64,000 nucleotides of DNA from Candidatus Enterousia sp. (GTDB taxonomy: Bacteria > Pseudomonadota > Alphaproteobacteria > Rs-D84), in NCBI GenBank assembly GCA_045613445.1, contig JAZLAZ010000007.1, positions 2,696 to 66,695 of the forward strand. Reading direction: 5' to 3'. Shown here piece after piece: positions 1,864-45,912 of the stretch (within the stretch, counting starts at the first letter, position 1; the number at the start of each line of letters is the position of its first letter). The notes under the pieces were generated by a model that was given only the letters and a program-made list of their open reading frames with translations, was not told where the DNA came from and ran no database searches. The position numbers and the translations under genes were made by a program.

Positions 1864-1888
1864 TTTTTTGTGCGATTTATGGTATAAT
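1860..1888 (+). promoter_or_regulatory. sigma70-type promoter, extended -10
   Basis: TTGATT (1860-1865), 17-nt spacer, TGgTATAAT (1880-1888). Confidence 0.55.
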
Positions 1889-1896
1889 ATAGGCAT

Positions 1897-1927
1897 GCGT
1901 CACTGGGAACAGTGGCGTTTGTTTTTT
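1897..1927 (+). terminator. intrinsic terminator hairpin 1 in leader of fibre-like gene
   Basis: GCGTCACTG / CAGTGGCGT 9-bp stem (2 G-U pairs), then TTTGTTTTTT. Confidence 0.55.
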
Positions 1928-1928
1928 A

Positions 1929-1961
1929 CCCTGCCCTGCACAATCGTGGCGGGGATTTTTT
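1929..1961 (+). terminator. intrinsic terminator hairpin 2 in leader of fibre-like gene
   Basis: CCCTGCC / GGCGGGG stem, then ATTTTTT. Lies 29 nt before the ATG at 1990. Confidence 0.5.
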
Positions 1962-1989: not shown

Positions 1990-2541
1990 ATGACACGTGT
2001 TTTACAAATCAGACGCGGTACATCCGCACAACATGAAAACTTTGTCGGGTTGCCCGGCGAAATTACAATGGATACTGACACAAAAACAATTCGACTGCAT
2101 GATGGCGAAACACTTGGCGGAACAGTAATTGGTACAAATGGTATCTTTGATATCAGTACTGTGCCTGATGATTTTTGGGTGGATATTATTACACAACACG
2201 CACCAAAGCAATTCAAGATAATCGAAACAAATCCTGTTACTTTTACAAATAATTCTGCAGGACAAGACTATATCATCGGTGGAAACGCTGTTCCACAATT
2301 TATCCACACTGTATTGGTATGCCAAAATGACGAAGCCGGATACACTGCTGGTGACCAAGTATGGTGCTGGGGGATTGGCAACCGTGCAAACCCAAGCCCA
2401 ACACCAATGCATAATCGAGATGGATTACGTATCAGAATGATGATAGATTCTGAAAGCTTTTGGGTAAATCATAAAGATACTGGCGCAAAAACACCAATAA
2501 CAGATACAAATTGGCGTATTTTATACCGAGTTTACTGTTGA
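1990..2541 (+). CDS. phage tail-fibre-like protein (Mtd-N / RRGT-type N-terminal motif)
   Basis: Internal ATG at 1990 with RBS AAAGGA. N-terminus MTRVLQIRRGTSAQHENFVGLPGEITMDTDTKTIRLHDGETLGG matches the RRGT..GE..DTDT..DG motif of phage fibre / Mtd N-terminal domains. Confidence 0.6.
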   Translation: MTRVLQIRRGTSAQHENFVGLPGEITMDTDTKTIRLHDGETLGGTVIGTNGIFDISTVPDDFWVDIITQHAPKQFKIIETNPVTFTNNSAGQDYIIGGNAVPQFIHTVLVCQNDEAGYTAGDQVWCWGIGNRANPSPTPMHNRDGLRIRMMIDSESFWVNHKDTGAKTPITDTNWRILYRVYC

Positions 2542-14744: not shown

Positions 14745-14750
14745 TTTCAT

Positions 14751-19718: not shown

Positions 19719-19794
19719 TGGTGGAGCTGATCGGACTCGAACCGACGACCCCTTGCATGCCATGCAAGTGCTCTACCAACTGAGCTACAACCCC
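19719..19794 (-). tRNA. tRNA-Ala (GGC)
   Basis: Hand-folded cloverleaf: acceptor GGGGTTG/CAGCTCC with G3:U70, anticodon loop ATGGCAT, T-loop TTCGAGT, ACCA. Confidence 0.85.
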
Positions 19795-19876
19795 GGTGTG
19801 CTGACATATTTTATATTTCTTCTTGCCAAATGTCAAATATATTTGCTAATCTTTTTATATATTTAAGGAGATATAA

Positions 19877-32008: not shown

Positions 32009-32183
32009 AATAATTACCTTTTCTTGTATTTAATTTTAATGTTTTTACGCTAAAAATGAAAGCCCAAAAATTACAGGGCAGTAAAATAATTCAGGCGGCG
32101 ATGCGCCAACATTTGTTTTCAGAAAAGATAAATGTGTTCTTTAACATATGTTTATTATAGGACACAAAAAGCCAACTTGCAAT

Positions 32184-32210
32184 AAAAATCCCCCAAGTGG
32201 GGGATTTTTA
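32184..32210. terminator. bidirectional terminator AAAAATCCCCC-aagt-GGGGGATTTTT
   Basis: Perfect 7-bp GC-rich stem flanked by an A-run and a T-run. Closes the minus-strand phage-type cluster. Confidence 0.75.
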
Positions 32211-32468
32211 TTTTATTACTGCACCTTTTATCAGGGTCAGGTCTTCTTTGATATCATCAATCTTGATTTGGATTCTGGCGATACCTGTTTCCAAAATTGT
32301 TGTTCTGTTTTCCAGCGCAGTTATACGATTATCAACACGTTCCAATTCCAACACAGAAAAATCTTGCTTGGCAGCCCAGTAAATTACACCTGCGATAAAT
32401 ACGATTATAAACCAACTGTCACGCAAAAATTCAATTAAACCATTTACAGGATGTTGTTGCGATTTCAT
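32208..32468 (-). CDS. phage-cluster small membrane/coiled-coil protein (86 aa)
   Basis: One TM (WFIIVFIAGVIYWAA) plus a coiled coil. Last gene of the cluster. Confidence 0.5.
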   Translation of the reverse strand: MKSQQHPVNGLIEFLRDSWFIIVFIAGVIYWAAKQDFSVLELERVDNRITALENRTTILETGIARIQIKIDDIKEDLTLIKGAVIK

Positions 32469-32668
32469 GATTTATCCCCCCGCCCACGCGATACAAATGT
32501 TTCAATCTGATGCACCAACATGCGTTGCGATTCCAATGAACGCAATTCTGATTCTGTGGCATTTGCCCCCAGCACGCGTTCAATCGTTATATGACGCAAG
32601 TGCGTCAGCACACGCTGCCCAGATGCACCAGAAAATGTTTTGGCATATGCCTGTTCTATATCTGTCAT
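32465..32668 (-). CDS. phage-cluster small protein (67 aa), portal-adjacent
   Basis: Translationally coupled to the portal gene and the next ORF (4-nt overlaps). Faint resemblance to small portal-adjacent proteins of BPP-1-like phages, recalled from memory only. Confidence 0.45.
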   Translation of the reverse strand: MTDIEQAYAKTFSGASGQRVLTHLRHITIERVLGANATESELRSLESQRMLVHQIETFVSRGRGDKS

Positions 32669-33900
32669 AAAGCCCCCCCAATAATACTTTCTGTTGCGGT
32701 CATTTGTGCGATTGGTGCAATGTATTTTAATTCTGCATCGCTGTTTAATTTTATTTCTGGGATCAGACCGCGCGATGACAGAATCTGTAATCCCCTGTCA
32801 CATAACGGTCTGATAAATTCATGTAACAGACGACCATATGTCGCGCCCAAAATACGCATCATATCGGCATTGCGCGCCATAATTTCTGTTGCTGTCATTT
32901 CTTTTTCACTCAACAACCCCAGTCTGTCTACCAATAATGTGTGCCGTATGCGTTCACGCAAATCTTTTAATATAATTTGTGACACATCAAAATTCGCAGC
33001 ACTGGTCAACGGTGTAAGTCCTGATGATCCAACTGCCTTTGGTATAATTGCCCCTGGTGTTAAATTGATATTATTTAAGTTTACAACACCATCGTCATCT
33101 GCTTGCCAGATACCTGATACGGCAATTGTTGCGTTTTTTAATACCAGTTCTACGACTTTGTTCGCTGTTTTTATATCTGGCAATGCACGCATAATGGGAC
33201 CGCGACCATATAGTTCGCCACTGGCAACAGACCAACGAAATACGATATATGGATTTGTTTCAAATGTACCCGTTGATACAATATTATTTTCAATATCGCC
33301 ACCAACATCTAACCATGCTGTAAATTCTGTTCCAACCAAACTTTGCACCAATTTTAATTGTATTTCTGGGTCGTTCTTGATTGAATCACGCAAATTTGCA
33401 GGCGGTGTCCATGTTGGATATTTTTCCATCACTTCATTTGCACTCATCGATGTTGTGTGAAATATCGCGTTTGGTAAAATCGCAATATCTGATACTGGTA
33501 TCGCAGTAAAGTTAAATGCAGATGATGCACCAATTGGATTTTGCCCCATAAACAAACACGCTGTTCCCAAGGTTACTAAATCCATATAGCACTGGTGTAT
33601 CGTCGTGTAAAAATTAGAATCATTTAAGTGGGCACGCAACACAGATGTCGCATAATCAGCATCCGGTGATAATTCACTTTCGCGAACCAGTTGCAACCAC
33701 ATCGATTCTGGAGGTGTCAACAAAGTGTAAATGGATGCAGCCAAGTTATCTGCTGCATCTGATGCTGTTGCATCGTATAATGTTGCTAGATCCACATCAG
33801 ATGTTGGCATTGTATATCTGTGTGCGTCTTCCCAGCGCGAAATCCATGGTTCACGTAAACCAATGGCGCGTTTATAAAGTTGCACTAAATTATTTTGCAT
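32665..33900 (-). CDS. podovirus-type portal (head-to-tail connector) protein
   Basis: N-terminus LYKRAIGLREPWISRWEDAHRYTMP is typical of podovirus head-tail connector family proteins. Lies directly downstream of the terminase. Confidence 0.6.
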   Translation of the reverse strand: MQNNLVQLYKRAIGLREPWISRWEDAHRYTMPTSDVDLATLYDATASDAADNLAASIYTLLTPPESMWLQLVRESELSPDADYATSVLRAHLNDSNFYTTIHQCYMDLVTLGTACLFMGQNPIGASSAFNFTAIPVSDIAILPNAIFHTTSMSANEVMEKYPTWTPPANLRDSIKNDPEIQLKLVQSLVGTEFTAWLDVGGDIENNIVSTGTFETNPYIVFRWSVASGELYGRGPIMRALPDIKTANKVVELVLKNATIAVSGIWQADDDGVVNLNNINLTPGAIIPKAVGSSGLTPLTSAANFDVSQIILKDLRERIRHTLLVDRLGLLSEKEMTATEIMARNADMMRILGATYGRLLHEFIRPLCDRGLQILSSRGLIPEIKLNSDAELKYIAPIAQMTATESIIGGAL

Positions 33901-33923
33901 TTTTATTCCTTTTTGTTGTGTTG

Positions 33924-34787
33924 TTATATCTTGAAATTTGTATTTGCTGAAAATGTTTTAATTGTATGCCCCAATGGTCGCACGATATTTGGCTGTTGTG
34001 CAATTGCACCTGCGACTGCGTCCAGACCATCATCGTGCCCAATATATCCAACTGGTGACCAACCAATCATCTCTGACATCAATGGTGTTTTTTGAATACG
34101 AGCATGTGCATACAGTCGTCCAGTACTTAAAACAGGTTCAATTGCAGCCAAAATTCTGTCTGACTTTGATTTTGTATGTGATACACGATTTACATATACA
34201 CTGAATCCACAACGCATTGCACAATCATGCATAATTTCTGGAACGCCAATTCCAATACCGTTTGTTTCAATTGTTATTCTGGACAATCCGCGCACCCGCA
34301 TAAAGTCAATTACCATATCACACTGACGCGATAACGGAAATTGTTCTGAATCAAGTACTGCCAGATATAAAATATCGTGAATAAACACATGCTTGTTTTT
34401 ATCATCGCGGTATATCAGCACACAGGCACTGCCGTCACGTTTACTGCGACCTGTGGACGGATCCCAATACAAAACACAGCCAGAAATCAGATGTTTACCT
34501 ATTTTGGCTGACCGAGAATCAAATTCTTCGTCATAAAATAGCAAACCACCAGGATCTAACCTTGCGCGTTCTGGCGAAATAAATTCCAACATCATTTGGG
34601 CAGAAAAATGTCGTTCCCCCACTGTTTCTTGCATTTGGGCAATTTTTTTAACCGGAAAAAGTTCTGGCCACGCAGGATTTCCAGCACTGTCCACAATTGG
34701 AATCTTTAATATTTTATACCCAGACAAAAAAGGCGTTGAAAAAGCATTTTTTTCATATACCATTGAACCAAAGAAGGAATTTGACAT
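33924..34787 (-). CDS. terminase large subunit, C-terminal (nuclease) half of a split gene
   Basis: AWPELFP..FSAQMMLEF, YWDPSTGRSKRDGSACVLIY and GHDDGLDAVAGAI are RNase-H-like nuclease motifs. The first usable ATG at 34787 shares the palindrome CATG with the dnaB start. Confidence 0.7.
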   Translation of the reverse strand: MSNSFFGSMVYEKNAFSTPFLSGYKILKIPIVDSAGNPAWPELFPVKKIAQMQETVGERHFSAQMMLEFISPERARLDPGGLLFYDEEFDSRSAKIGKHLISGCVLYWDPSTGRSKRDGSACVLIYRDDKNKHVFIHDILYLAVLDSEQFPLSRQCDMVIDFMRVRGLSRITIETNGIGIGVPEIMHDCAMRCGFSVYVNRVSHTKSKSDRILAAIEPVLSTGRLYAHARIQKTPLMSEMIGWSPVGYIGHDDGLDAVAGAIAQQPNIVRPLGHTIKTFSANTNFKI

Positions 34788-36351
34788 GGACTTTACCCCT
34801 AAGACTTTACCAACCAATTTAGAAGCCGAACAGGCCGTATTGGCGGCGGTTTTAATGAACAATCGTGCGTTGGAACGCGTGTCTGAATTCCTGCGAGCAG
34901 AACACTTTTCGCATCCAGCACACCAAGAAATTTTCAAACTGGCAACCCGTCAATTCGAAGTTGGCATCCCATTTGATATTATCACCGCAAAAAACTATCT
35001 GGATCAGCAAGGTGTTCTGGAATCCGTCGGTGGCGTTGACTATCTGACACAATTATCTGGCGCAGGTGCAACTGTTGTAAATGTTGAACAATACGCAAAA
35101 ATAGTTTACGAACACGCAATGCGTCGTGATTTAATCGCATTGGGCCAAGATATTACTGACAAAGCTTTTATCGAAGATCTGGATAACCCTGTTATTCGAC
35201 AAATAGAAATCGCAGAACAAAAATTATTCGATATGGCCACAACAGGTTCGTCTGAACGCGAAGTATCATCTATTGAAACAGCACTAAATGCGGCATTAAA
35301 AGAAGCAGAAATCGCGTACAAAGCCGAAAATCAATTGTCTGGTCTAACCACTGGCTTGGATGCATTAGATAAATCAATCAGTGGTTTACACCATTCAGAT
35401 TTAATCATTATTGCTGGTCGACCTGCGATGGGAAAAACAACACTGGCAATGAACATGGCGTTTAATGCAGCACACGCAATTGCATACGGACGCGCAAACC
35501 CAAATTACAAGGGCGCAGTTGTATTTTTCAGTCTTGAAATGTCTGCGTCACAGTTGGCTGCGCGTGTATTATCATCGCAATCAAAAGTTCCTGCATCAGC
35601 CATGCGCGAAGGGAATTTGACAGACGAAGACTTTTTGAAACTGACACAATATGCATCCGCTATAAATAAAATACCATTGTTTATTGATGACACACCAGGT
35701 ATGTCGGTACCAATGATTCGCACCCGCGCACGCAGACTGGCACGTCAACATGGTGGCATTGCACTGATTGTTATCGACTATCTGCAATTGATGACATCCC
35801 CAGGTGGCAAAAAAAATGACAACCGTGTTCAAGAAATTTCCGAAATCACCCGCGGTTTGAAAATGCTGGCCAAAGATTTAGATGTACCTGTTATCGCATT
35901 GTCACAGTTGTCGCGTAGCGTTGAACAACGCGATGATAAACGACCACAGTTGGCAGACTTGCGCGAATCAGGATCTATTGAACAAGACGCCGGTATTGTT
36001 ATGTTCACATATCGTGAAGAATACTATCTGCAAAATCGCGATCCATCTGAAAGACTGTCAAATACAACCAATAACACAATGGTAGAAAGCTGGCAAAAGC
36101 GTCTTGATCGCGCCCGCGGCAAAGCCGATATTATCATCGGAAAAAACCGTCATGGACGCCCAGAAACAGTACGCACTGCGTTCTATGGCGATTACAGTTT
36201 ATTCGATAATTTGGACGAATTCCAATCACGCGGAGAAAATGAATTTGCACAGCCTGCACAGACAGTAACAGCATCTGCATTTGGCCCTGATCCAAATTCA
36301 ATGCCAACCGCAATCGATCCAGACGCAATCCCAGACGATATTCCATTGTAA
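34786..36351 (+). CDS. dnaB: replicative DNA helicase DnaB (with ~60-aa acidic/Pro-rich C-terminal tail)
   Basis: N-terminal LPTNLEAEQAVLAAVL, Walker A GRPAMGKTTLAMNMA, IDYLQLM, ALSQLSR, NRHG. Confidence 0.93.
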   Translation: MDFTPKTLPTNLEAEQAVLAAVLMNNRALERVSEFLRAEHFSHPAHQEIFKLATRQFEVGIPFDIITAKNYLDQQGVLESVGGVDYLTQLSGAGATVVNVEQYAKIVYEHAMRRDLIALGQDITDKAFIEDLDNPVIRQIEIAEQKLFDMATTGSSEREVSSIETALNAALKEAEIAYKAENQLSGLTTGLDALDKSISGLHHSDLIIIAGRPAMGKTTLAMNMAFNAAHAIAYGRANPNYKGAVVFFSLEMSASQLAARVLSSQSKVPASAMREGNLTDEDFLKLTQYASAINKIPLFIDDTPGMSVPMIRTRARRLARQHGGIALIVIDYLQLMTSPGGKKNDNRVQEISEITRGLKMLAKDLDVPVIALSQLSRSVEQRDDKRPQLADLRESGSIEQDAGIVMFTYREEYYLQNRDPSERLSNTTNNTMVESWQKRLDRARGKADIIIGKNRHGRPETVRTAFYGDYSLFDNLDEFQSRGENEFAQPAQTVTASAFGPDPNSMPTAIDPDAIPDDIPL

Positions 36352-36430
36352 TTTTTGTATGATTTTACTTGCACAATTTCTAAAAATTGACTAATATTTT
36401 GTCAAGAAATATTTTTTTAGGAGTTTTGCC

Positions 36431-37438
36431 ATGGCACAAGAAGAAATCATCTTTCCAAATAATATACGCAACATTCGTTTGGCGGCTGGCATGAAAATGA
36501 CTGAATTGGCGCGTCGTACCGGTCTGTCGTTGTCCGCTGTTTCCAAAATTGAAAAGGGTGTGCGACGCCTGAATCAAAAACAATTGTTGAACATATGTAA
36601 TATCTTGGGCTGTAAATTATCCGATATATTCATCAAAGAATCTGACGATGTCGCAAACCAATGGCAAAGCGAAATAAAACGCCGCATGACAGATAATGAA
36701 GACAGCGGTTTGAAAGTATTTGGCAGCGGATTGCGTAAAATCCGCCAACAAAAAGGTAAAACAATCGCACAGGCAGCAAAAGACGCTGGCATGACACTGT
36801 CTGTATATCATAAAATCGAAGTCGGTCAACGCGAAATTTATAAAAATGAAATCGAACCATTGGCAAAATCTTTTGCAATGGGTGTCGAAGATATGTTCCA
36901 ACAGATCGCCAACCTGTATAAATCTGGCGAATTGAACAAACATATCAACAAGGTCAAAGAACGCGTTAAATCTGTTTTAATTCCAGGCAACCCAATGTCT
37001 GGTATCGATATGCATGGCAGCGTTTATGGTGCAAAACTGTATGACAGCGCACGCAAAAAATTAGTACCAGTCTTTGGAACGCCCGCAGGCAAATCAATTG
37101 TTTTCAAAAAATCAGACGAAACGATGATTGTTGCGCCAATGACACTGGAAGGACGCAAAGGTATCTATGCCATCATACCAAACACAAAAAGGTTGGGTGG
37201 TTTTATCCCTGAAAAATCTTATCTGTTCGTTGATGCATTGACACCTGCGCAACCAGGTGACTTGGCGGTATGTATCGACACCGACTTTAATACATTGGAC
37301 AGTGACACAAAAACAACTGCACATATTGTCAGTGTGCGTCAAGATGCCAAAGGAAAATTATATGGACATATCGCATCACCAGAAGAAAAAGTTACCGGCC
37401 AAACAATGCATAAAGTTATCATGATTGTAATGGAATAA
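36431..37438 (+). CDS. dual XRE-HTH regulator with degenerate LexA/CI (S24-like) C-terminal domain
   Basis: Two HTH units (IRNIRLAAGMKMTELARRTGLS.. and LRKIRQQKGKTIAQAAKDAGMT..). The C-terminus resembles the S24 fold but has GGFIPEK where the catalytic GDSMxP would be. Confidence 0.6.
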   Translation: MAQEEIIFPNNIRNIRLAAGMKMTELARRTGLSLSAVSKIEKGVRRLNQKQLLNICNILGCKLSDIFIKESDDVANQWQSEIKRRMTDNEDSGLKVFGSGLRKIRQQKGKTIAQAAKDAGMTLSVYHKIEVGQREIYKNEIEPLAKSFAMGVEDMFQQIANLYKSGELNKHINKVKERVKSVLIPGNPMSGIDMHGSVYGAKLYDSARKKLVPVFGTPAGKSIVFKKSDETMIVAPMTLEGRKGIYAIIPNTKRLGGFIPEKSYLFVDALTPAQPGDLAVCIDTDFNTLDSDTKTTAHIVSVRQDAKGKLYGHIASPEEKVTGQTMHKVIMIVME

Positions 37439-37466
37439 GTCCATAACCAACAGGAGAGAGACAACC

Positions 37467-38108
37467 ATGAAAGTACAAATTCGTGCAACTGCACAAAAAT
37501 TGGTAAACCTGTACCGTCAGGCGCATGTTATAGTTGGTGGCTGGTCGGCTGTAAACCCAATATTCATCAACGAGGCTGACGATGCTGTCATCCAAGAAAT
37601 ACGCGAATTACCAACAGGAAAAATGTTGGTTCGTCATATCGAAAATTTACGCAGTGGCAAAACATCGATGGATTCAATCGAACGTGAATTGTTGCCATAT
37701 GGCGGCATGATGGCAGGCAACACAATTGCGACAATCAATTTGACAAGTGACCAATGGACAGAACTGGAAAATGGAATTAAAAACTTTATTCCAACCCAAG
37801 AAGGTCTTGATGCATTCACAGAACTGGATGTTGTTCATAAATTCGGTGAAGAATGGCAAACAGCTATCAGTTCATTGATACAAACCAAACCACATCTGCG
37901 TAATGGATGGACAAACATAAATCAGACATTTAATGCATACAGATTATGGAATACTGCACGCGAAGTCATTTCAAATCCACTGACAGAACGCGTCCGCGCC
38001 CAGGTTCAATCTGATATGCCTGAATTTGAGACATATTTACCAATGTTTGGCGATGCAGGAACAGAATTATTGGCCAAACTGCGTACTTTTATCAGTACAA
38101 TCGACTAA
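37467..38108 (+). CDS. hypothetical protein (213 aa), third gene of the dnaB cassette
   Basis: ORF with RBS AGGAGAG. No homology recognised. Confidence 0.55.
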   Translation: MKVQIRATAQKLVNLYRQAHVIVGGWSAVNPIFINEADDAVIQEIRELPTGKMLVRHIENLRSGKTSMDSIERELLPYGGMMAGNTIATINLTSDQWTELENGIKNFIPTQEGLDAFTELDVVHKFGEEWQTAISSLIQTKPHLRNGWTNINQTFNAYRLWNTAREVISNPLTERVRAQVQSDMPEFETYLPMFGDAGTELLAKLRTFISTID

Positions 38109-38112
38109 ACAT

Positions 38113-38721
38113 TCACTGCGTTCGATATATCGTATCGTATGTATGCGGTGTGCCAATGTAAATCATTGTACCTGTTGGTGATAAAATAAAATCCAATTCA
38201 CGCAATCGTTCTCGTAAATTTTCGCGCTTTTGTGCTGTGTTGGATGTATTTGGCACTTCGACATCGTCACAAATTATTAAATCTGCACGCATACCTGTTA
38301 TGTTCCCATAAACACCCTGACATATCACAGATGGTTCACGAATGCCAATCGGTCTGTTTATTGTGATACGACCTGTTGCCCATTCTTTTTTATTTGCAGG
38401 AATCATATCTGTACAAAATGTATGATTTTCTAAAACATGCTTGATATGAGATACCATACGGGTTGCCAATGTATTTTCGGCAGATAAAATCAATATTCGT
38501 GTTTCTGGGTACAAATATAAAATACATGCTGCAAATACACCAACAACTGTTGATTTACCTGAATGACGAAACGCCATCAATAATCCCCTATGCGGATTTT
38601 CAGTCCAACAATCTACCAAAAAACGCATAATCTGGCGATGGTGCGCAGGTGTTGACAGTCCCAATATTCTGTTCCATTCGTCCAGAAATTTATAAAACTC
38701 CGTAATCATCGTTGTTTTCAT
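38113..38721 (-). CDS. terminase large subunit, N-terminal (ATPase) half of a split gene
   Basis: Walker A AFRHSGKST, Walker B DLIICDDVE, coupling motif IYIGTPH. The stop lies 4 nt from the end of the plus-strand cassette. Confidence 0.7.
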   Translation of the reverse strand: MKTTMITEFYKFLDEWNRILGLSTPAHHRQIMRFLVDCWTENPHRGLLMAFRHSGKSTVVGVFAACILYLYPETRILILSAENTLATRMVSHIKHVLENHTFCTDMIPANKKEWATGRITINRPIGIREPSVICQGVYGNITGMRADLIICDDVEVPNTSNTAQKRENLRERLRELDFILSPTGTMIYIGTPHTYDTIYRTQ

Positions 38722-39253
38722 TCGGTGCAGGTTCTGTAATCAGACCATAATCGTTTATCAATTTTGGTAATGCATTTTCCAACACAGACAACAAATTTTG
38801 ATACAGTCCCAGCACCGCCCCACCAGACAGTTTATCTGCAATTACTTGATTTGTATAATCCATCAAACGCTTTATATTGTCATGTTTGTTCTGCCATTCC
38901 AAAGTATCAACATTTATGCTGTGTAAATCTTGAAAAGCAGACAGTAAAAAATTAAAATCAGAATTCAAATCTTCTGGGTCTATTTTTTTGGTCGGCTGAT
39001 AATCAATTGTACGTGATAACGATATCTGACGAAATATATCTATCTTGGTATCTATAGCAGGTGCAACATCAAACACAATGTTTCCACCAGAAAAATCTTC
39101 GTTTGGCATGACAGCAAAATTATGATTTTCACCATCAATAACTTCATCAATTGCGACACGAACATCTGCAGTTTGAAAGAAAGGAAAAGAAAATGCAAAT
39201 TCTGTTGTCGCACCATCTGCAATATAAGAGATTTTATACATGTTATCCCCCAT
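38690..39253 (-). CDS. T7 gp17-N-like tail fibre/fibre-anchor protein (187 aa)
   Basis: MYKISYIADGATTEFAFSFPFFQTADVRVAID parallels the T7 tail-fibre N-terminal domain (..TYQLDGSNRDFNIPFEYLARKFVVVTL..). Confidence 0.55.
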   Translation of the reverse strand: MGDNMYKISYIADGATTEFAFSFPFFQTADVRVAIDEVIDGENHNFAVMPNEDFSGGNIVFDVAPAIDTKIDIFRQISLSRTIDYQPTKKIDPEDLNSDFNFLLSAFQDLHSINVDTLEWQNKHDNIKRLMDYTNQVIADKLSGGAVLGLYQNLLSVLENALPKLINDYGLITEPAPNENNDDYGVL

Positions 39254-39256
39254 TTT

Positions 39257-39604
39257 TTACCCAGCAATATCATCAAATCTTGATAATATTTTTTCCAGCA
39301 AGTTTACATTTTTAGCCTTGGTCTTTTTTAATTTAGCAATGTTTGATTGTCTTTTTTCTTCGTATGGGGCAGAAACTTCTGATTTCAATCGTTTTAATAC
39401 TGCACCTTCGGTTATGCCATTACCAGACATACCAGATGCGCCATATTTTGCACGTTGGGTGGCCAATGCCTTATTTACCAGATTTGTTTTTTCCGCTTCG
39501 TCAGCAGCCATTTTTTTCAGAATTTCTTTGCGTTCTGATTTAGCTGCTTTTTTAGCATCTTGATATTCCAAGATTTCTGTCACATCACTTACAATTTGTC
39601 CCAT
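39257..39604 (-). CDS. phage-cluster Lys/Ala-rich coiled protein (115 aa), possible internal virion protein
   Basis: Position between the tail-like gene and the fibre gene. Composition only. Confidence 0.4.
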   Translation of the reverse strand: MGQIVSDVTEILEYQDAKKAAKSERKEILKKMAADEAEKTNLVNKALATQRAKYGASGMSGNGITEGAVLKRLKSEVSAPYEEKRQSNIAKLKKTKAKNVNLLEKILSRFDDIAG

Positions 39605-39627
39605 TGTTTATATCCTTTGTTATTTTG

Positions 39628-41340
39628 TTATACTTTATACCAACCGTGTACACTGACCGATAAAACCGTTATTGGCATTGGTTCTGAACTGTGTATCGTC
39701 CACATCGGTTCAATCGCATTTTTTATTGTTCCTAATAAATTTATTGAAACATCACCGTTGTATCCGGACGACGAAATATCGTATACAGAATTTGGCAATG
39801 TTATACGATGCTTGTTTATTGATATTGATTTTGTATCAATCACACGTGCAACTATTTTTCGAACTTTGATGCGTGTCGCATTATGATTTGACGAACGCAA
39901 CGGTAACCCAGATGCAGTAAATGAAAAATTATATTGCCCCGCATCAATCAATGCTGTTGAATCAAAATATTCTAAAAATACAGCATCATCGCGTTTAACA
40001 ACAGCATATGTTTTGCCATCACATGACGCAACAGACATGAAACCGCCACGCGTTTTATATGTTCCCCATGCGGATACACCCAATGACGCATTTTGATTTA
40101 ATACAGCCATCGTGCCATTATCACACACAACAAACAACTGACGCGTGTTACTGTTATACACAATATCCAATGGTATGGTCATTAAATGTTTTGATAACGC
40201 ACATAAATCATTTGCATTATAATGTTCACCAATATCATCCAGACTTAGTTCACGAATATCACGACCATTACCTGATATAAAAACCGTCGCGCCTTCTATT
40301 TTTTGTGGCGCCAAAAAACGACGCATGTACGATCCAACCGATGTATGCTGTTTTATATCAACCGCAGATGGCGTCAGCGGTTTATTTGATATCGCCCATT
40401 CACCAGAATTAGTCAATATTTGTAAATTATCACTGCTGACAACAGTGCAAATTTCTTGTCGTTCTTGTGATAATAACGAAACAAATATCGCTTCGTCATC
40501 AAGACCTGTACCTGCACTGAAATTTTTATGATTTCCAACCTTGGACATCCATATACCACTGGGCCAAGAACGCGACCCTCCAAAAACTAATCTGTCTTGA
40601 TGAAAAGTGATACTGCGTGGCCATCCACGACGATTACTGAATGCCGCTTCGTACCATTCAGACACAGGGCCATTTGGTATGGTATATACAGCATTGATAT
40701 ATGCAACGATTTGCGTTGGGCTGATATATTCTGTAATTTCCCATTGATTTTCCAGCAAATGTAAACGCGTGCCAACACTGTCCGGTGTCCAAAAGTTTTT
40801 ATTCGTGGTAAATGTAGCATAATTATTCCCAGATGAATGCGTACTGATTGTTATCCGAATATCGTCAGAATCATCAAACCGCATAAACGGCATGTTCAAT
40901 GTCATATTACTGTTGCCTTCAAATTGAAATGCAGACAGACGAAATGCTGAACCCTGCTTTTGCAACACATATGGTTGATAATCAGGGTGAACAAATATCA
41001 TCGTACCAAAACGCTGGGCATACTGCACAGCAAACAAGTCATCATAAGACCATGGAGATGCTAAATCTTGGTGCAACTGGTTGTTATAATATACAGATAT
41101 ATGATGATCTGTCAGCACTAATATATAATCTTCGTTATCTGCGACAGAAAAACAGATTATTCTGGCATCACCAGACAACTGATTGACTGTTGTTAGTCCA
41201 TATCTGCGCGATATTGCACCACTGGCCAAAACATCCATATTTTCCAGTTTTGACAAACCGTTTATATTATCATGCGCAAAAAATTCCGGGGCAACTTCAC
41301 CATTTGCAAATGAATTTTGTGTTTTTATAAAACTTGCCAT
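39628..41340 (-). CDS. phage tail/nozzle-like structural protein (570 aa)
   Basis: N-terminus QNSFANGEVAPEFFAHDNINGLSKLENMDVLASGAISRRYG resembles podovirus tail tubular/structural proteins. Position after the adaptor-like gene. Confidence 0.5.
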   Translation of the reverse strand: MASFIKTQNSFANGEVAPEFFAHDNINGLSKLENMDVLASGAISRRYGLTTVNQLSGDARIICFSVADNEDYILVLTDHHISVYYNNQLHQDLASPWSYDDLFAVQYAQRFGTMIFVHPDYQPYVLQKQGSAFRLSAFQFEGNSNMTLNMPFMRFDDSDDIRITISTHSSGNNYATFTTNKNFWTPDSVGTRLHLLENQWEITEYISPTQIVAYINAVYTIPNGPVSEWYEAAFSNRRGWPRSITFHQDRLVFGGSRSWPSGIWMSKVGNHKNFSAGTGLDDEAIFVSLLSQERQEICTVVSSDNLQILTNSGEWAISNKPLTPSAVDIKQHTSVGSYMRRFLAPQKIEGATVFISGNGRDIRELSLDDIGEHYNANDLCALSKHLMTIPLDIVYNSNTRQLFVVCDNGTMAVLNQNASLGVSAWGTYKTRGGFMSVASCDGKTYAVVKRDDAVFLEYFDSTALIDAGQYNFSFTASGLPLRSSNHNATRIKVRKIVARVIDTKSISINKHRITLPNSVYDISSSGYNGDVSINLLGTIKNAIEPMWTIHSSEPMPITVLSVSVHGWYKV

Positions 41341-41353
41341 TTTTTTACCCCTA

Positions 41354-41872
41354 TTAAAATCTGGAACTGATTAAAAAAAAGTCTGATATAGTGTCACTAA
41401 TTGATGTTGTACTGTCGATGAATTTCGCGTTTTGCAGTTCTGATTCATACAATGCAACCAACATACGAAAAACTGTTTGATCGCCCAACAATGGTATACA
41501 AAATTCCATTGCTAAACGCGTAGCAACCAATGATGCAAAATATCCAGGAAATTTTTCTGGTGCTGTTTTAGTTATCGCAATTATATGTGTCGTATCAGCA
41601 TCAGATAAAATCTTATTGCCCATAATTTGACCGTCTGATTTTAGGACACGCAAAACATCTGATGGAATTACAAAATTATTATCTGTGTTTTTTACTAAAT
41701 CTATACTTTGTATCGCAAAACGCCATGGATATAATGACAATAATGAATCAGTAACTGTATCAAACAGTGTTCTGGATAATTGCACCGCAGCACTGTCATC
41801 TGTCAATGATTGTATTGGTGTTTCACCCAGTTTTAATAATGCCATAGAACATAAGTCTATCTTAGTAAGCAT
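41354..41872 (-). CDS. head-tail adaptor / tail tubular A-like protein
   Basis: Start at MLTKIDLCSMALLKLGE (RBS AGGAG). The I..AL..LG....SL.D.S pattern is typical of podovirus adaptor proteins. Confidence 0.45.
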   Translation of the reverse strand: MLTKIDLCSMALLKLGETPIQSLTDDSAAVQLSRTLFDTVTDSLLSLYPWRFAIQSIDLVKNTDNNFVIPSDVLRVLKSDGQIMGNKILSDADTTHIIAITKTAPEKFPGYFASLVATRLAMEFCIPLLGDQTVFRMLVALYESELQNAKFIDSTTSISDTISDFFLISSRF

Positions 41873-41964
41873 GTTTGGGTTCTCCTTTTTTTTGATGTTT
41901 ATTAGCAAAATATCAGGCCGGTAAAAATACCGGCCCAAACATATAAAAGATATATAAAAATATA

Positions 41965-42192
41965 TTATGCCAATGCAACTGTGGTTACATTTAAGTCTGT
42001 AATATTTATTTTCTTTATCGCTGTGTTATCAGATGCATTGATAATAATATCACCAATATTCATCAATGTTTTTACGCTGTTAAAATAACCATTTGCTGTG
42101 ATTGTTGATAATGTCTCAGCTGCACTGTAATGCCACAATGTAAATCCATTTGCGTATGCAATAACTGACAAGTTTTTATTTTGAAATGCCAT
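41965..42192 (-). CDS. phage-cluster small protein (75 aa) downstream of capsid
   Basis: ORF in operon position. No function assigned. Confidence 0.45.
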   Translation of the reverse strand: MAFQNKNLSVIAYANGFTLWHYSAAETLSTITANGYFNSVKTLMNIGDIIINASDNTAIKKINITDLNVTTVALA

Positions 42193-42236
42193 GTTTTTTC
42201 CTTTTGTTAAATCTTTTGATTTCTATTGTGTTTTAT

Positions 42237-43064
42237 TTATGCAGATGGTGCATCAGAACATTTAACGCGAACAATACCTGCATTATCAATCAATACTGCA
42301 CCTTGGGACATGCTATTGCTGATAAAGTGTGCAGCACGTTCACCATGCCAAGAAATATCTGTTTTAACTTCTTGACCACAAGCATGACCGACACTGGACG
42401 CATGATAAATAAAGCAATCACGATTTGTACCATCAACAGGCAAACCGTTGTACAGAACCCATGTAATTCCCAACCATTTGCGTGCTTCAAACCCGTTCAC
42501 CAACGGAGATGCATTGCCAACATAATCAGCAGATATAAATTCATCCATCGACAACAGTTCATTCCACTGGTGTACACCAACAACTGCAAAACGACGACCA
42601 TCGTCTGGAACATCGTTTGTATTCAAGACTTCAACAGCCGACAAGATTAAATCTTTGGTCAATCCAGATGTATAATCACCCACACCTGTGGTTACAGTAT
42701 TCATTGCACTGACAATCAATTCATCTGTCTTGCGACCCAATGCGTATGCACCAGCCGATGCCACAACGCGACGTTCATCAACATTGATTTTCAATTCATC
42801 CAATGCATCAACCCAATCACCTGCATAATAATCTTGCAGCATACATTCAATTGGTTCATGATTCAAATTCATCACAGGAACAATACCGTGACGCGATTTT
42901 GTGCTGGCAGTACCACGACCAACCTTTTGAAAGGTTGTTGATGCACCAACAACACCAGATTTACTGCGAACAGTTGAACGCAGTTTTGTGCCCATTTGCT
43001 GATAAGCCAAATGAACATCCGCTTCGAATTGTTTTACGAATACATTATCTATTGAAATAGACAT
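42237..43064 (-). CDS. major capsid protein (small, presumed HK97-fold)
   Basis: N-terminus VFVKQFEADVHLAYQQMGTKLRSTVR..TFQKVG is typical of podovirus major capsid proteins. Position after the scaffold-like gene. Confidence 0.6.
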   Translation of the reverse strand: MSISIDNVFVKQFEADVHLAYQQMGTKLRSTVRSKSGVVGASTTFQKVGRGTASTKSRHGIVPVMNLNHEPIECMLQDYYAGDWVDALDELKINVDERRVVASAGAYALGRKTDELIVSAMNTVTTGVGDYTSGLTKDLILSAVEVLNTNDVPDDGRRFAVVGVHQWNELLSMDEFISADYVGNASPLVNGFEARKWLGITWVLYNGLPVDGTNRDCFIYHASSVGHACGQEVKTDISWHGERAAHFISNSMSQGAVLIDNAGIVRVKCSDAPSA

Positions 43065-43310
43065 ACAAAAATCCTTTTGTTAAAAATTAAACATTTATGC
43101 AAATAACGCATATCAGATTTTGTGTTTTGGTTATGCAAATAATGCGCCATAAAAACAAAAAATTATTTGGGTCCGTAATGAATACAGATTATCCATAAAA
43201 AATATCAGTCAGACTGTGCACAATAATCTGACTGATACTTTTATAAAAACAGGGTCTGTGAATCACAGACCCTTGACATATAAAAACCCCACCATTATTG
43301 GGGAATTATA

Positions 43311-43709
43311 TTATTTTTTCTTTGCACATGCTTTTTTTGCAACTGGTTTTGCTGCTGCTTTCTTTGCAACTGGTTTCGCAGCTACTTTTTTTGCAACTGG
43401 TTTTTTCGCAGCTACTTTTTTTGCAACTGGTTTTGCTGCTGCTTTTTTTGCAACTGGTTTTTTCGCAGCTACTTTTTTTGCAACTGGTTTCGCAGCTACT
43501 TTTTTTGCAACTGGTTTTGCTGCTGCTTTCTTTGCAACTGGTTTTGCAGCTACTTTTTTTGCAACTGGTTTTGCTGCTGCTTTTTTTGCAACTGGTTTTG
43601 CTGCTGCTTTTTTTGCAACTGGTTTCGCAGCTGCTTTTTTTGCAACTGGTTTTGCTGCTGCTTTTTTTGCAACTGGTTTTGCTGCTGCTTTTTTCTTAAA
43701 CAAGAACAT
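43311..43709 (-). CDS. Lys/Ala/Pro 9-aa-repeat basic protein (histone H1 / AlgP-like)
   Basis: RBS AGGAGA. The protein is almost entirely (A)AAKPVAKK repeats. Minus frame chosen for its RBS, the cluster strand and the terminators downstream. Confidence 0.65.
   Translation of the reverse strand: MFLFKKKAAAKPVAKKAAAKPVAKKAAAKPVAKKAAAKPVAKKAAAKPVAKKVAAKPVAKKAAAKPVAKKVAAKPVAKKVAAKKPVAKKAAAKPVAKKVAAKKPVAKKVAAKPVAKKAAAKPVAKKACAKKK
43322..43696 (-). repeat. 27-nt (occasionally 30-nt) in-frame tandem repeat, about 13 units
   Basis: GCAACTGGTTTTGCTGCTGCTTTTTTT units alternating with TTCGCAGCTACT variants. Confidence 0.9.
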
Positions 43710-43813
43710 TCTTCTCTCCTATATTTTTTGAAGATAGAACAAATTTTTTTGTTCTTACTTTATATTTTATATGAAATATATTTTTTAGTAAAGAAGAAAG
43801 TGATATTTTTTTT

Positions 43814-44470
43814 CTACGAATATAATTTTTTAAATCCATTTTCTATTTTTCGGATGTATTCAACATCATTATCACGCCAATATTTTGGATCACGCATCAT
43901 GCGACGCAAATCAGAATCTGTTAAATTTTGCGTTTCATTTTTATCTGTTTTTACATCTGGTTCCATTGATTGCATCATCTTATAGACACTTTGTATTCCC
44001 TGGGGTGTAGAACATAACGCATCAAATGCATCACGTGGTAAAAACCGTTCACCAAATGCATTTATTGCATGCATTGCTTCATTCATTTTTTCTGTCCCAC
44101 CAAAAAAATTTTTTAATTCATTTATTGCAACACTTTCATTTTGTACAGAAAATAATTCTGATATTATTGGTGATAAATATTCATTTGCAATATTATAAAT
44201 TTTTTCAACTTGAGAAGTTGTCAATCCAATCTGAAAAAATTGTTCTCGCAAACTTTCATCATCATATAAATCATTTTTTGGATATTCAGATGCACTTTCT
44301 GGGACACCTATTGCACGATTAAATTTTCGTTTAGATTCTGCATCAGAATTTTCATTCGGTACTGATATCATTGTACCAATCTTTTTTTCCAGTTCTGTAT
44401 AAGATTTTATCAATGATTCCGAATTTAATGTTCCATCTTGGTTCAAAAATTTTTCTGGTATTTTATCCAT
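43814..44470 (-). CDS. scaffolding/capsid-assembly-like protein
   Basis: Start MDKIPEKFLNQDGTLNSESLIKSYTELEKKIG (RBS AAGGA). Helical, acidic, upstream of the capsid gene. Confidence 0.45.
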   Translation of the reverse strand: MDKIPEKFLNQDGTLNSESLIKSYTELEKKIGTMISVPNENSDAESKRKFNRAIGVPESASEYPKNDLYDDESLREQFFQIGLTTSQVEKIYNIANEYLSPIISELFSVQNESVAINELKNFFGGTEKMNEAMHAINAFGERFLPRDAFDALCSTPQGIQSVYKMMQSMEPDVKTDKNETQNLTDSDLRRMMRDPKYWRDNDVEYIRKIENGFKKLYS

Positions 44471-44666
44471 TACTTTTTCCTTTTGTTTCATTTGCTTTGC
44501 GCAAGAAATAAATTCCACCCAATGTAAAAATAGCTTGTAACATTGTAAAAATATCTGTATCACCAACCAAGTATGCAGCCAATGCTGACAGTATACCCGT
44601 TGCAGAAATTATATATGTACGATATCCAGACAGATAACCACCTTTGACTATTCTTTTCATATGCAA
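44463..44666 (-). CDS. holin-like small membrane protein (two TM)
   Basis: 67 aa, two hydrophobic segments, basic C-terminus. Immediately after the endolysin gene. Confidence 0.45.
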   Translation of the reverse strand: MHMKRIVKGGYLSGYRTYIISATGILSALAAYLVGDTDIFTMLQAIFTLGGIYFLRKANETKGKSNG

Positions 44667-44669
44667 TAC

Positions 44670-45068
44670 CTATAAATAAAATAATATTCCATCTATATCA
44701 TCAATATACCCACGTGCAATTGCCCATTGTGGTATAAAACTGGCATGATGAAATTTGGTTGCACCGTGACAACAATCAGACAATCCACCAGACAACATAC
44801 GCGACGCCACACGAACACACATTTCAAATTTACGGTTATTTATATTTTCGTCTGCAATTAAAATTTTATTTACGTCACTAAAAATCGTTTTATCTGATAT
44901 GATTTCCGATATTGCAACACCTGTTTTATTTGATAGATTTTGTATCATTGATGTCAACGCTTCGACAAGCAGCAACGATGTGGCACCTGTTTGTTCATAC
45001 ACAACACGTGCGACACGATATGCCAATGTTGCATGCATATCTGTGTTCTTTATCAATTTTAATTGCAT
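44670..45068 (-). CDS. SleB/Hydrolase_2-like cell-wall hydrolase (endolysin)
   Basis: C-terminal GATKFHHASFIPQWA motif and overall pattern of SleB-type phage/GTA lysins. Start set to MQLKLIK (ATG 45068, RBS AAAGGA) because the upstream codons are terminator hairpins. Confidence 0.55.
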   Translation of the reverse strand: MQLKLIKNTDMHATLAYRVARVVYEQTGATSLLLVEALTSMIQNLSNKTGVAISEIISDKTIFSDVNKILIADENINNRKFEMCVRVASRMLSGGLSDCCHGATKFHHASFIPQWAIARGYIDDIDGILFYL

Positions 45069-45085
45069 GACGAATATCCTTTGGT

Positions 45086-45114
45086 AAAAAAAATCCCATG
45101 CAAAATGCATGGGA
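45086..45114 (-). terminator. leader terminator 2 (proximal to endolysin gene)
   Basis: Minus strand: UCCCAUGCA-uuu-UGCAUGGGA followed by U8. Confidence 0.6.
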
Positions 45115-45117
45115 AAT

Positions 45118-45140
45118 AAAAAAACCACACAATTGTGTGG
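45118..45140 (-). terminator. leader terminator 1 / 16-bp perfect palindrome
   Basis: CCACACAATTGTGTGG followed on the minus strand by U7. Could alternatively be an operator. Confidence 0.5.
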
Positions 45141-45167
45141 ACATAATTTGTGCTGTTTATGTGAACA

Positions 45168-45196
45168 ATACTATCATATTTTCATTAAAAAGTCAA
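45168..45196 (-). promoter_or_regulatory. sigma70 promoter of the phage-type cluster
   Basis: Minus strand: TTGACT (45191-45196), 17 nt, TAGTAT (45168-45173). Confidence 0.6.
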
Positions 45197-45231: not shown

Positions 45232-45912
45232 TTACACAATTATTTCATCACCATACACCAATAAATATCGTGTTCCACGACGCAAAACCAGCGCACCATT
45301 TTCATTTATACCAATCAATTCTGCCAGTTCACCTTGATACTTGACAGGTTTGTTTATGCACGCAGCCAATTCTGTCCATCTGGCGCGCACAGCGCGAAAA
45401 TCAGCACGACGCCACTTATCAATATTGCGCATCAATCTGTTTAGTAATTCATTCATTGGTATTTCAGAATAATTATCTAATTTGGTCGTCTGATATCGTT
45501 CAACAGTTGGATTTGAATTTACATTGATACCAATACCAACAACAACGAATCGGCCTGTATATTCAATCAAAATACCCGCCATTTTTTTATTATCCACCAA
45601 TATATCATTTGGCCATTTTATTGTTGGATGTACGCCAAATGACGCAATTGTTTCAGATACCGCCACTGCAATTGCATATGACAGACGCGCATCACGTTCA
45701 GGACATTCAAATATAAAACTGATATACAAATTTCCATGATGAGAAACCCATGTTCTGCGATATCGTCCACGCCCAGCAGATTGTGCCGCCGCCAAGACCG
45801 CCGTTTTATCAGTTGCACGCCCAGCATTGATTAGTTCATGCGCATAATCTTGGGTACTTGGGATTTTATCAAAAGATATCAATTTATAGTTTGCCAATAC
45901 TGTATACTCCAT
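45232..45912 (-). CDS. birA: biotin--[acetyl-CoA-carboxylase] ligase
   Basis: GRGRYRRTWVSHHGNLYISF signature, KWPNDILV. Start set to MEYTVLANYK. Confidence 0.85.
   Translation of the reverse strand: MEYTVLANYKLISFDKIPSTQDYAHELINAGRATDKTAVLAAAQSAGRGRYRRTWVSHHGNLYISFIFECPERDARLSYAIAVAVSETIASFGVHPTIKWPNDILVDNKKMAGILIEYTGRFVVVGIGINVNSNPTVERYQTTKLDNYSEIPMNELLNRLMRNIDKWRRADFRAVRARWTELAACINKPVKYQGELAELIGINENGALVLRRGTRYLLVYGDEIIV

Follow-up and report, generated by a model that had tools for sequence, protein, structure and literature searches.

Is the block of phage-type genes that lies between birA and trpS in Candidatus Enterousia sp. a particle-making system kept by its host, the remains of a decaying prophage, or a mobile element? 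The question was raised by a 64,000-nt stretch of DNA (assembly GCA_045613445.1, contig JAZLAZ010000007.1, positions 2,696-66,695, forward strand), the whole of which is referred to below as the window, and in which a first-pass annotation made from the sequence had read positions 32208-45196 as a miniature podovirus-type particle locus. Enterousia belongs to the order Rs-D84 of the Alphaproteobacteria and has genomes of 0.75-1.0 Mb; the papers describing it make no mention of phage genes, and no earlier description of the locus was found in the searchable literature on Enterousia, Rs-D84 or RF32 with phage or gene transfer agent (GTA). The locus is a phage-derived set of head, tail, packaging and lysis genes, which selection maintains at a fixed place in the host chromosome. 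Its best explanation, to which a probability of about 0.6 is given on the strength of sequence comparison, is a domesticated remnant of a short-tailed phage of the T7/BPP-1 lineage, which would have been fixed before the sampled species diverged and would serve as a host-maintained, GTA-like particle-making system.

A phage-derived locus fixed in the Enterousia chromosome

Relatives were collected by scanning one genome per GTDB species, which returned 291, and 80 loci were kept, all from metagenome-assembled genomes (MAGs) labelled Candidatus Enterousia or Alphaproteobacteria and originating from ruminant, human and other guts; gene order was judged as far as each contig extends. The block occupied the same site, in the same order, in 80/80 species-level genomes, including the split large terminase (TerL) and the cassette that separates its halves. 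This order comprises o82, o176, birA, lysin, holin, scaffold, the Lys/Ala-repeat gene, capsid, o75, adaptor, nozzle, o115, the fibre stub (where present) and TerL-N, followed by o213, xre and dnaB on the opposite strand and then by TerL-C, portal, Bbp19 and o86. Four more distant contigs from IMG/VR, with capsids 79-83% identical and a GC content of 0.35-0.45, displayed an identical order. Capsid homologues numbered 3770, the best 120 of which were 84-95% identical, several of them on contigs of up to 1 Mb. The open reading frames (ORFs) were full length in all loci save at contig ends and in one locus, L035, described below.

Median pairwise dN/dS ratios, calculated by the Nei-Gojobori method, were 0.06 for the capsid, 0.07 for the portal, 0.09 for the nozzle, 0.11 for TerL-N, 0.15 for TerL-C, 0.22 for the scaffold and 0.32 for the lysin, a range across block genes (0.06-0.32) similar to the values for host dnaB (0.05) and host birA (0.18), all of them rough because dS is about 1 and near saturation. 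Mean protein distance was 0.107 for the capsid, compared with 0.141 for DnaB and 0.293 for BirA, and the pairwise distances of the particle genes tracked host-gene distances about as closely as the latter tracked one another. Judged from these alignments, the block is vertically inherited under purifying selection, and genomes of less than 1 Mb, in which each retained gene needs justification, still spend about 10 kb on it. The first-pass annotation had proposed conservation, synteny and dN/dS in relatives as a check for domestication, and frameshifts or rapid decay there as grounds for rejecting it; the outcome favours domestication, and such decay was not seen save in L035.

L035 (JAFZHX010000001.1, a water-buffalo MAG, locus at 5800-13700) carries a decayed copy. 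Its scaffold gene is frameshifted, one deletion extends from approximately residue 63 of the adaptor to approximately residue 63 of TerL-N and takes with it the nozzle, o115 and the fibre stub, and a second extends from approximately residue 103 of the portal to approximately residue 28 of o86, with Bbp19 gone; the capsid gene, TerL-C and the dnaB cassette are still intact. As the cassette was kept while phage genes were deleted, decay is possible and becomes visible once selection lapses.

A defective prophage persisting only through an embedded essential dnaB operon, with its structural genes heading to decay, would account for the position of a host-type replicative dnaB within TerL, for the frameshifts and deletions of L035 and for the loss of fibre genes in some species. 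However, 14 separate ORFs could not stay intact over 80 species through linkage to dnaB, and the dN/dS values of 0.06-0.15 for capsid, portal, nozzle and both TerL halves, the slower change of the capsid relative to DnaB and the loss in L035 of the phage genes that flank a retained cassette also speak against this explanation, which we consider very improbable.

The ORFs of the block were identified using profile searches against Pfam and PHROGs and, for the structural parts, sequence matches to the PDB, and the gene content, order and coordinates of the first-pass annotation were borne out. The features of the block are as follows.

32208-45196, minus strand: whole block, flanked by birA on one side and trpS on the other
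44670-45128 (ORF; probable start ATG 45068), minus strand: endolysin, SleB/Hydrolase_2-like; weak matches to PF07486 (1.8e-3) and phrog_938 (2e-4)
44463..44666, minus strand: holin-like 67-aa ORF with hydrophobic stretches, assigned from sequence without a family match
43814..44566 (true start probably 44470-44491), minus strand: scaffold; PF05396 (T7 capsid assembly protein), 4e-8
43311..43709, minus strand: histone-H1-like Lys/Ala-repeat protein with 27-nt repeats; PF07382 (HC2-like), 5e-9, under the cut-off
42237..43064, minus strand: major capsid protein, HK97 fold; PF19821 (1.7e-70), phrog_3437, PDB 9eg4 (1.6e-24)
41965..42192, minus strand: 75-aa ORF (o75), always 3' of the capsid gene; phrog_18004 (4e-12); dN/dS 0.056
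41354..41872 (ORF to 41938), minus strand: adaptor, tail tubular protein A-like; phrog_394 (8.6e-31), PF17212 weak
39628..41340, minus strand: tail nozzle, 570 aa; phrog_376 (2.5e-83), PDB 8ck1 'Tail Nozzle' (1.1e-27)
39257..39604, minus strand: 115-aa charged ORF (o115), present in 76 loci; dN/dS 0.19
38690..39253, minus strand: fibre N-terminal stub, 187 aa, T7 gp17-N-like; PF03906 (1.1e-4, just under the cut-off), phrog_21412 (2.9e-12)
38113..38721, minus strand: TerL-N (ATPase core); phrog_38 positions 271-459 (6.6e-42)
33924..34787, minus strand: TerL-C (end of the ATPase domain and nuclease); phrog_38 positions 468-705 (1.5e-30), PF22530 weak
32665..33900, minus strand: portal, 411 aa; PF12236 (8.7e-82)
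32465..32668, minus strand: Bbp19-like small protein; PF25181 (8.2e-8)
32208..32468, minus strand: 86-aa ORF (o86), a hydrophobic stretch followed by a heptad-like region; weak match to phrog_1193 'hemolysin' (4e-4); dN/dS 0.12

Minus the dnaB cassette, the block measures approximately 9.66 kb, in agreement with the 9.6 kb first estimated, and its GC content (0.32-0.42) lies inside the range of the whole window (0.29-0.43), as the A+T richness judged host-like by eye had indicated. 'Miniature' is a fair label, because portal, nozzle and fibre are shorter than those of relatives: the portal is without the C-terminal ~100 aa (podovirus portals in the PDB, of 490-556 aa, aligned to query residues 7-386), the nozzle has 570 aa versus 818-830 aa in the matched solved nozzle-type chains, and the fibre stub protein consists of the T7-fibre N-terminal domain and nothing more. 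The holin-like ORF was kept in 60 loci (dN/dS 0.15), and o115 gave zero family matches in Pfam, PHROGs and NCBIfam. The 75-aa ORF, which is also found downstream of the capsid gene in three distant relatives (L081, L086 and L142, see below), is possibly a head accessory protein, and the 86-aa ORF possibly a lysis accessory protein; in L086 a small ORF likewise lies 3' of the portal gene. Between scaffold and capsid, a Lys/Ala ORF of 75-204 aa with 51-72% Lys+Ala was present in 63/63 loci covering the interval, with a promoter-like site upstream and terminators downstream; it could encode a DNA-condensing component of the particle, or be a nucleoid protein gene lodged in the cluster.

In line with the first-pass annotation, Pfam and PHROGs scans identified no integrase and no replication genes in the block, and a search for att-like direct repeats at its borders yielded only short, imperfect pairs at chance level. 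A XerC-like recombinase lies outside the block at 29333-30244, its best score being to XerC but under the NCBIfam cut-off, and has the same neighbourhood in one relative. Elsewhere in the window, a low-GC (0.29-0.34) island at 7296-19800 adjoining tRNA-His and tRNA-Ala contains a tyrosine-integrase fragment (11595-12179), a weak Rep ORF2/G2P-like protein (15159-16136), a DNA methylase-like gene (8915-10399) and two large serine recombinases (16666-18090, 18144-19604). The island is probably an integrated mobile element in its own right that has nothing to do with the podovirus-type cluster.

About 50-60 'viral genomes' of approximately 10 kb in IMG/VR (L090-L141) carry close relatives of the capsid, and many of them begin exactly at the capsid gene. 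The four contigs inspected in full were trimmed copies of this chromosomal locus, dnaB cassette included, and a host-owned element therefore inflates viral catalogues. This listing as viral contigs, together with the small size of the region and its own capsid, portal and TerL without replication genes, would suit a mobile capsid-encoding satellite (cf-PICI-like) or a prophage arm split off by misassembly. However, the chromosomal site and host flanks are identical in 80 independent assemblies; the integrase, att sites and replication module of a cf-PICI-like satellite are missing from the block, as is any primase gene, and the insertion site is constant; host genes are embedded in the block, its divergence tracks that of host genes, and the IMG/VR contigs retain the host cassette. 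The satellite, decaying-prophage and misassembly readings that had been entertained at first are thus contradicted by the invariant chromosomal context, the intact ORFs and the low dN/dS; the invariant context speaks equally against an active prophage, and a satellite or a misassembly is in our view an extremely improbable source of the locus.

Tandem-terminator leaders at two loci

Expression of the block had been attributed to a single promoter driving the whole set. One strong conserved promoter was found (45196-45168), but two terminators follow directly after it, more terminators stand after the Lys/Ala gene and the 75-aa ORF, and 3.3 kb of genes on the other strand have to be crossed before TerL-C, the portal and the two small ORFs are reached; the simple form of the claim was not borne out. 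The elements of the main leader, and of a second leader at a remote fibre gene, are as follows.

45168..45196, minus strand: near-consensus sigma70-type promoter, TTGACT, 17 nt, TG-extended -10 TAGTAT
45150..45161, minus strand: conserved box CATAAACAGCAC in the first transcribed bases, nearly invariant in the leader alignment
45094..45140, minus strand: two tandem intrinsic terminators, each a hairpin with a T-run, between the promoter and the first gene
1860..1961, plus strand: leader of the Mtd-like gene, comprising TTGATT, 17 nt, TGGTATAAT, two terminator-like hairpins (1897-1918 and ~1930-1955), ribosome-binding site (RBS) and ATG
1990..2541, plus strand: Mtd_N-type fibre or receptor-binding-like protein, 183 aa; PF18454 (4e-15)

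The -35 element and the TGnTAnnAT -10 were invariant across the 51 aligned species of the leader alignment (A1), and every species examined displayed the promoter, CATAAACAGCAC, two hairpins with T-runs, RBS and ATG in that order, the RBS and ATG of the endolysin being kept downstream of the leader terminators. The hairpin sequences differ widely among species while pairing is kept, with compensatory changes in 15/16 pairs; the observed covariation values were reached by 0/500 shuffles, and slid-register controls were far lower. A strict scan of the 64-kb window identified the main leader as its sole tandem terminator pair, and CATAAACAGCAC, of which the window holds a single exact copy, is possibly a pause or recruitment site. 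A strong promoter and immediate terminators followed by lysis and morphogenesis genes constitute the design of lambdoid late operons. Because of this lambdoid-like layout, and because CcGTA is documented to be controlled by transcription antitermination (PMC11150451), processive antitermination is the putative on-switch.

The separate fibre-like gene that had been singled out at 1990..2541 was substantiated by its Mtd_N match and by an AlphaFold2 model (pLDDT 89.8) whose top PDB fold match was BPP-1 Mtd (E = 3e-5, probability 1.0), over the N-terminal domain only; this domain also resembles tail fibres of streptococcal phages. Beta-strands make up most of the remainder of the model, with weaker fold matches to beta-sandwich proteins, and the fold search gave no match to the C-terminal lectin domain of Mtd. 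The idea of dispersed loci likewise gained support, as the Mtd-like gene shares the unusual promoter-plus-terminator leader with the main cluster. This layout is kept in five other species, in four of which (L087, L088, L089 and L150) compensatory changes were found, while L151 has one hairpin. A loose pattern derived from both promoters matched nowhere else in the window, the pattern itself being derived from these two sites. Homologues of the Mtd-like gene fall into 74 clusters; in 5/5 relatives examined the gene stands between a large ORF without a family match and ackA, and in one relative it lies within ~10 kb of the particle cluster. The compact, conserved promoter-plus-tandem-terminator signature can serve in a search for more members of the regulon.

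In 6/6 genomes the Mtd-like gene has a large ORF of 614-869 aa upstream of it, directly adjacent in five (window 7-1863, L087 4023-5867, L088 3273-5882 and L151 1680-3908 among them), while in L150 (702-3074) a 243-aa ORF (3149-3880) intervenes. In the window, its stop codon overlaps the -35 of the fibre-gene promoter. This 618-aa ORF (o618) was considered as an internal core protein and rejected, since neither it nor its 614-aa and 869-aa counterparts had any Pfam, PHROG or NCBIfam hit. In L087, a gene at 502-1671, some 4.5 kb ahead of the Mtd-like one, encodes a 389-aa protein in which a phage-lysozyme domain and weak minor-head/head-morphogenesis matches were recognised, and which may be another accessory part of the particle; the corresponding position falls beyond the start of the window.

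Two small regulator-like genes just upstream of birA (45884-46655) are kept in the loci that reach there. One, o82, encodes a Cro/C1-type helix-turn-helix (HTH) protein, 79-94% identical across species (dN/dS 0.046); the other, o176, has a C-terminal winged-helix that is OmpR-like by eye. Both are candidates for control of the cluster. Further RNA signals within and at the end of the block are as follows.

43204..43303, minus strand: three terminator-like hairpins after the Lys/Ala gene
43128..43149, minus strand: small hairpin (NGG-C-GCA / loop / TGC-AYAA-CCN') in the capsid 5' leader
41913..41938, minus strand: terminator after the capsid gene and 75-aa ORF, a hairpin with a T-rich tail in at least 50/80 loci
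32181..32212, both strands: bidirectional terminator closing the cluster

The closing pair of the small hairpin was kept in 72/73 sequences, with T-A to C-G changes and a loop of 4-10 nt. It belongs to a capsid 5' leader of approximately 190 nt (43085-43240), conserved in the species examined, which also holds a sequence-conserved palindrome, CAGTCAGA...TCTGACTG, with a T-run, the motif AAAACACAAAAT and a variable covarying hairpin ahead of the RBS. A sigma54 promoter upstream of the capsid gene (TGGCGC-N5-TTGCAT) was rejected, as the spacing varies from 4 to 10 nt and the flanks covary in the manner of a hairpin. All matches of the leaders, that of the capsid included, to Rfam families were far under gathering scores.

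A terminase in two pieces around a dnaB cassette

The two TerL genes are separated by a cassette (34786..38108) that was found in every locus reaching that position and that comprises three genes on the opposite strand.

34786-36351, plus strand: dnaB, host-type; NF006606
36431-37438, plus strand: 335-aa XRE-family protein (xre335) with two HTH_3 domains (Pfam)
37467-38108, plus strand: o213, 213-aa all-alpha ORF (structure model, pLDDT 80.6)

TerL-N and TerL-C match consecutive parts of the phrog_38 profile (271-459 and 468-705). On alignment with intact relatives of ~490 aa, TerL-N ends just past the GTPHxxDTIY motif and TerL-C resumes at FLxGxxxLxIP; since in intact TerLs these two points are joined by a variable linker of just 8-13 residues, the protein was cut in a variable loop with no residues lost. 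Both halves are under purifying selection (dN/dS 0.11 and 0.15), and the locus offers what appears to be a natural example of a large terminase that works although its halves are encoded by separate genes.

Many stand-alone C-terminal halves of TerL (270-300 aa, 36-44% identical, with the same start point) were found among representative proteins. Of three lineages with lone C halves, L081 alone covers both halves, the other contigs starting just upstream of the C half. L081, whose capsid is 76% identical to that of the window, has TerL-N, approximately 490 bp without a long ORF and TerL-C, with no dnaB between them, from which it follows that the split probably predates insertion of the cassette. 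L142 (capsid 57% identical) has an unsplit TerL and the canonical order of portal, scaffold, capsid ... TerL. The L081 spacer (7364-7857) contains a promoter-like TTGACA, 17 nt, TATATT, then CT-rich, structured sequence over approximately 200 nt and, just ahead of TerL-C, a strong terminator; downstream of TerL-C lies a pilin-like gene, not a portal; several further contigs of L081-like distant lineages break within ~300 bp upstream of TerL-C. An intron or known RNA at the split was rejected, as Rfam gave nothing above chance in the L081 spacer and the window junctions are without non-coding DNA, and no intein or homing-endonuclease domain was found in Pfam or PHROGs scans of the TerL halves or the cassette proteins.

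The dnaB gene scored 609 bits versus the NF006606 cut-off of 540 for the cellular replicative helicase; a phage-derived dnaB was ruled out, as the gene passes cellular equivalog cut-offs and fails that of phage_DnaB. Cassette and terminase are tightly interlocked: the ATGs of TerL-C and dnaB overlap as CATG in 65/68 species, the dnaB promoter (TTGAAA, 17 nt, TATACC) lies within the first ~20 codons of TerL-C, where third-position variation collapses, and the stop codons of TerL-N and o213 overlap in 48/74 species. In one species group (loci L020, L029, L033 and others; region 34727-34790) a mere 7-8 nt separate the dnaB -10 from the ATG, suggesting a leaderless mRNA, and in the window's own species group an insert of ~24 nt gives dnaB an RBS. 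The 335-aa protein can be read as CI-like, given its two HTH domains and a C-terminal domain resembling a degenerate S24 by eye, while o213 found no counterpart in the PDB, by fold or by sequence, and none in Pfam, PHROGs or NCBIfam. Candidates for a conserved antisense promoter of TerL-C inside dnaB were rejected, as the only ones identified are accounted for by coding constraint.

A putative particle and its known counterparts

A GTA-like particle is the most parsimonious function: purifying selection on the packaging motor and portal implies DNA packaging, the lysis genes imply release and the receptor-binding-type fibre implies adsorption. Antitermination, particle formation, packaged cargo and transfer to recipients are inferred. 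In such a scheme, the strong promoter would fire with its transcripts normally ending at the two tandem leader terminators, and in a subset of cells a putative antitermination factor would let RNA polymerase read through, giving expression of lysin, holin, scaffold, capsid, adaptor, nozzle, fibre stub and TerL-N. The same factor would switch on the remote Mtd-like gene via its like leader, and TerL-C, the portal and the two small ORFs would be reached either by continued antisense read-through across the dnaB cassette or from an unmapped promoter. The two TerL polypeptides would then reassemble into a motor and package DNA into small heads, and the particles would be released by holin and lysin.

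A more elaborate version, in which an independently domesticated T7-lineage GTA uses a two-polypeptide terminase, late transcription, which has to pass antisense through the essential dnaB/CI-like operon on its way to TerL-C and the portal, acts as a commitment switch for the lysing subpopulation and the embedded dnaB guards the locus from deletion, is speculative and seems to us doubtful as a whole. If it were true, switching on the particles would also disturb expression of the replicative helicase and of the repressor-like protein.

Several points weigh against a domesticated, GTA-like system. No antiterminator was recognised, the leader hairpins may do no more than end transcription of birA and o618, the genes ahead of them, and no clearly conserved antisense promoter was found inside dnaB from which TerL-C and the portal could be transcribed. 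Neither a small terminase nor internal core (ejection) proteins were recognised in the scans, as the first-pass annotation had also reported, and the absence of the latter leaves delivery across a recipient envelope unexplained. The system is dispensable, given that the fibre stub was cleanly deleted in ~16/76 species and that one cluster has decayed; the near-saturation of dS makes the dN/dS values rough.

An alternative is a particle that is made but has been repurposed, for controlled lysis with release of the cell contents, for killing of or adhesion to competitors or a eukaryotic or bacterial partner, or for delivery of the Lys/Ala protein. Enterousia is thought to be a metabolically dependent symbiont, and the same doubt has been voiced for the GTA genes of endosymbionts (PMC9254644); ejection proteins and the portal C-terminus are missing, the fibre stub was lost in ~16 species with the rest of the cluster intact, and a histone-like gene sits in the head module of every locus covering that interval. 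However, if no DNA were packaged, it would be difficult to account for purifying selection on the portal and the two halves of TerL, and a receptor-binding-type fibre gene is co-regulated, going by the design of its leader. We regard repurposing as possible but rather unlikely.

For a domesticated, GTA-like remnant, it can be stated that a caudovirus-derived structural and packaging set resides in a cellular genome without its own means of replication or integration (a viriform sensu PMC9662315), and that it has co-evolved with its host, as judged from the same site in 80/80 genomes, dN/dS of 0.06-0.32 (with dS near saturation) and the distance correlation; the conserved promoter and tandem-terminator leaders at two loci may serve regulation by the host. 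If the reading is correct, it would represent a further independent GTA domestication, of T7/BPP-1 type, in the Alphaproteobacteria and in uncultured gut symbionts with genomes of less than 1 Mb, and its prediction can be tested on virome and 'transductomics' data sets of ruminant or human gut origin.

RcGTA-type clusters are described as being of HK97 lineage and not podovirus-like. The Enterousia locus resembles RcGTA and CcGTA in being a phage-derived head, tail, packaging and lysis set without replication or integration genes, vertically inherited under purifying selection and with accessory loci elsewhere. It differs in that its portal, capsid, adaptor, nozzle and fibre N domain are of T7/BPP-1 type and its TerL is split in two; homologues of GafA or GafYZ were not recognised. 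As the first-pass annotation had maintained in separating it from the RcGTA gene order, the portal (PF12236), capsid (PF19821), nozzle and adaptor families are podovirus-type, which places it outside the RcGTA-like Rhodogtaviriformidae.

FpGTA of Faecalibacterium prausnitzii comprises podovirus-like operons of 10.5 and 5.5 kb, the second locus carrying fibre/receptor-binding genes, and forms particles of ~40 nm with ~9 kb of host DNA; it has a small-terminase candidate and an unsplit TerL (PMC12946183). The two systems, likened here by description, share a gut bacterium as host, a podovirus-type operon of ~10 kb and fibre genes at a second locus, but the host of FpGTA is a Firmicute, and FpGTA has experimental support whereas the Enterousia element is known from genes. 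In the reduced genomes of endosymbionts (Rickettsiales, Holosporaceae), GTA genes are under purifying selection and their ecological role is unclear (PMC9254644); these remnants likewise consist of selected particle genes in very small alphaproteobacterial genomes, but they are RcGTA-type head genes without tail genes, whereas the Enterousia head, tail and lysis set is complete and podovirus-type.

With podophages of the T7/BPP-1 lineage the locus shares homologous portal, scaffold, capsid, adaptor, nozzle, fibre N domain, TerL, Bbp19 and Mtd_N. Among isolates, Pelagibacter podophages come nearest (portals 27-31% identical), and the nearest solved parts are PDB 9eg4/9efk and 8ck0/8ck1. It differs from them in being chromosomally fixed, with shorter portal, nozzle and fibre, and in being without RNA and DNA polymerases, core proteins and a recognised small terminase. 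Membership among autonomous T7-like phages (Autographiviridae-type) is at odds with the absence of RNA polymerase, DNA replication genes and gp14-16 from the block ORFs and most window ORFs of >=150 aa scanned, and a BPP-1-like podophage with a diversity-generating retroelement is at odds with the sharing of only the Mtd N domain and with the window scans, in which no reverse transcriptase turned up. The gene order of Enterousia is permuted relative to L086 and L142. L086 (MT838907.1, human faecal, GC 0.51), a 5-kb 'Bacteriophage sp.' whose capsid and portal are 63% and 40% identical to those of the window, has portal, small ORF, scaffold, capsid, o75, adaptor and nozzle; going by the sequence comparison, this is the ancestral, uninterrupted order.

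The leader design finds its counterpart in the lambdoid PR'-tR'/Q system, with a strong promoter, immediate terminators, lysis and then morphogenesis genes, and a conserved element in the first transcribed bases; it differs in that no Q-like protein was recognised in o82, o176, o213 or xre335, antitermination being suggested here by analogy. Set beside all of these systems, the unusual features of the Enterousia locus are a two-piece terminase straddling a dnaB operon and the tandem-terminator leaders shared by its two loci.

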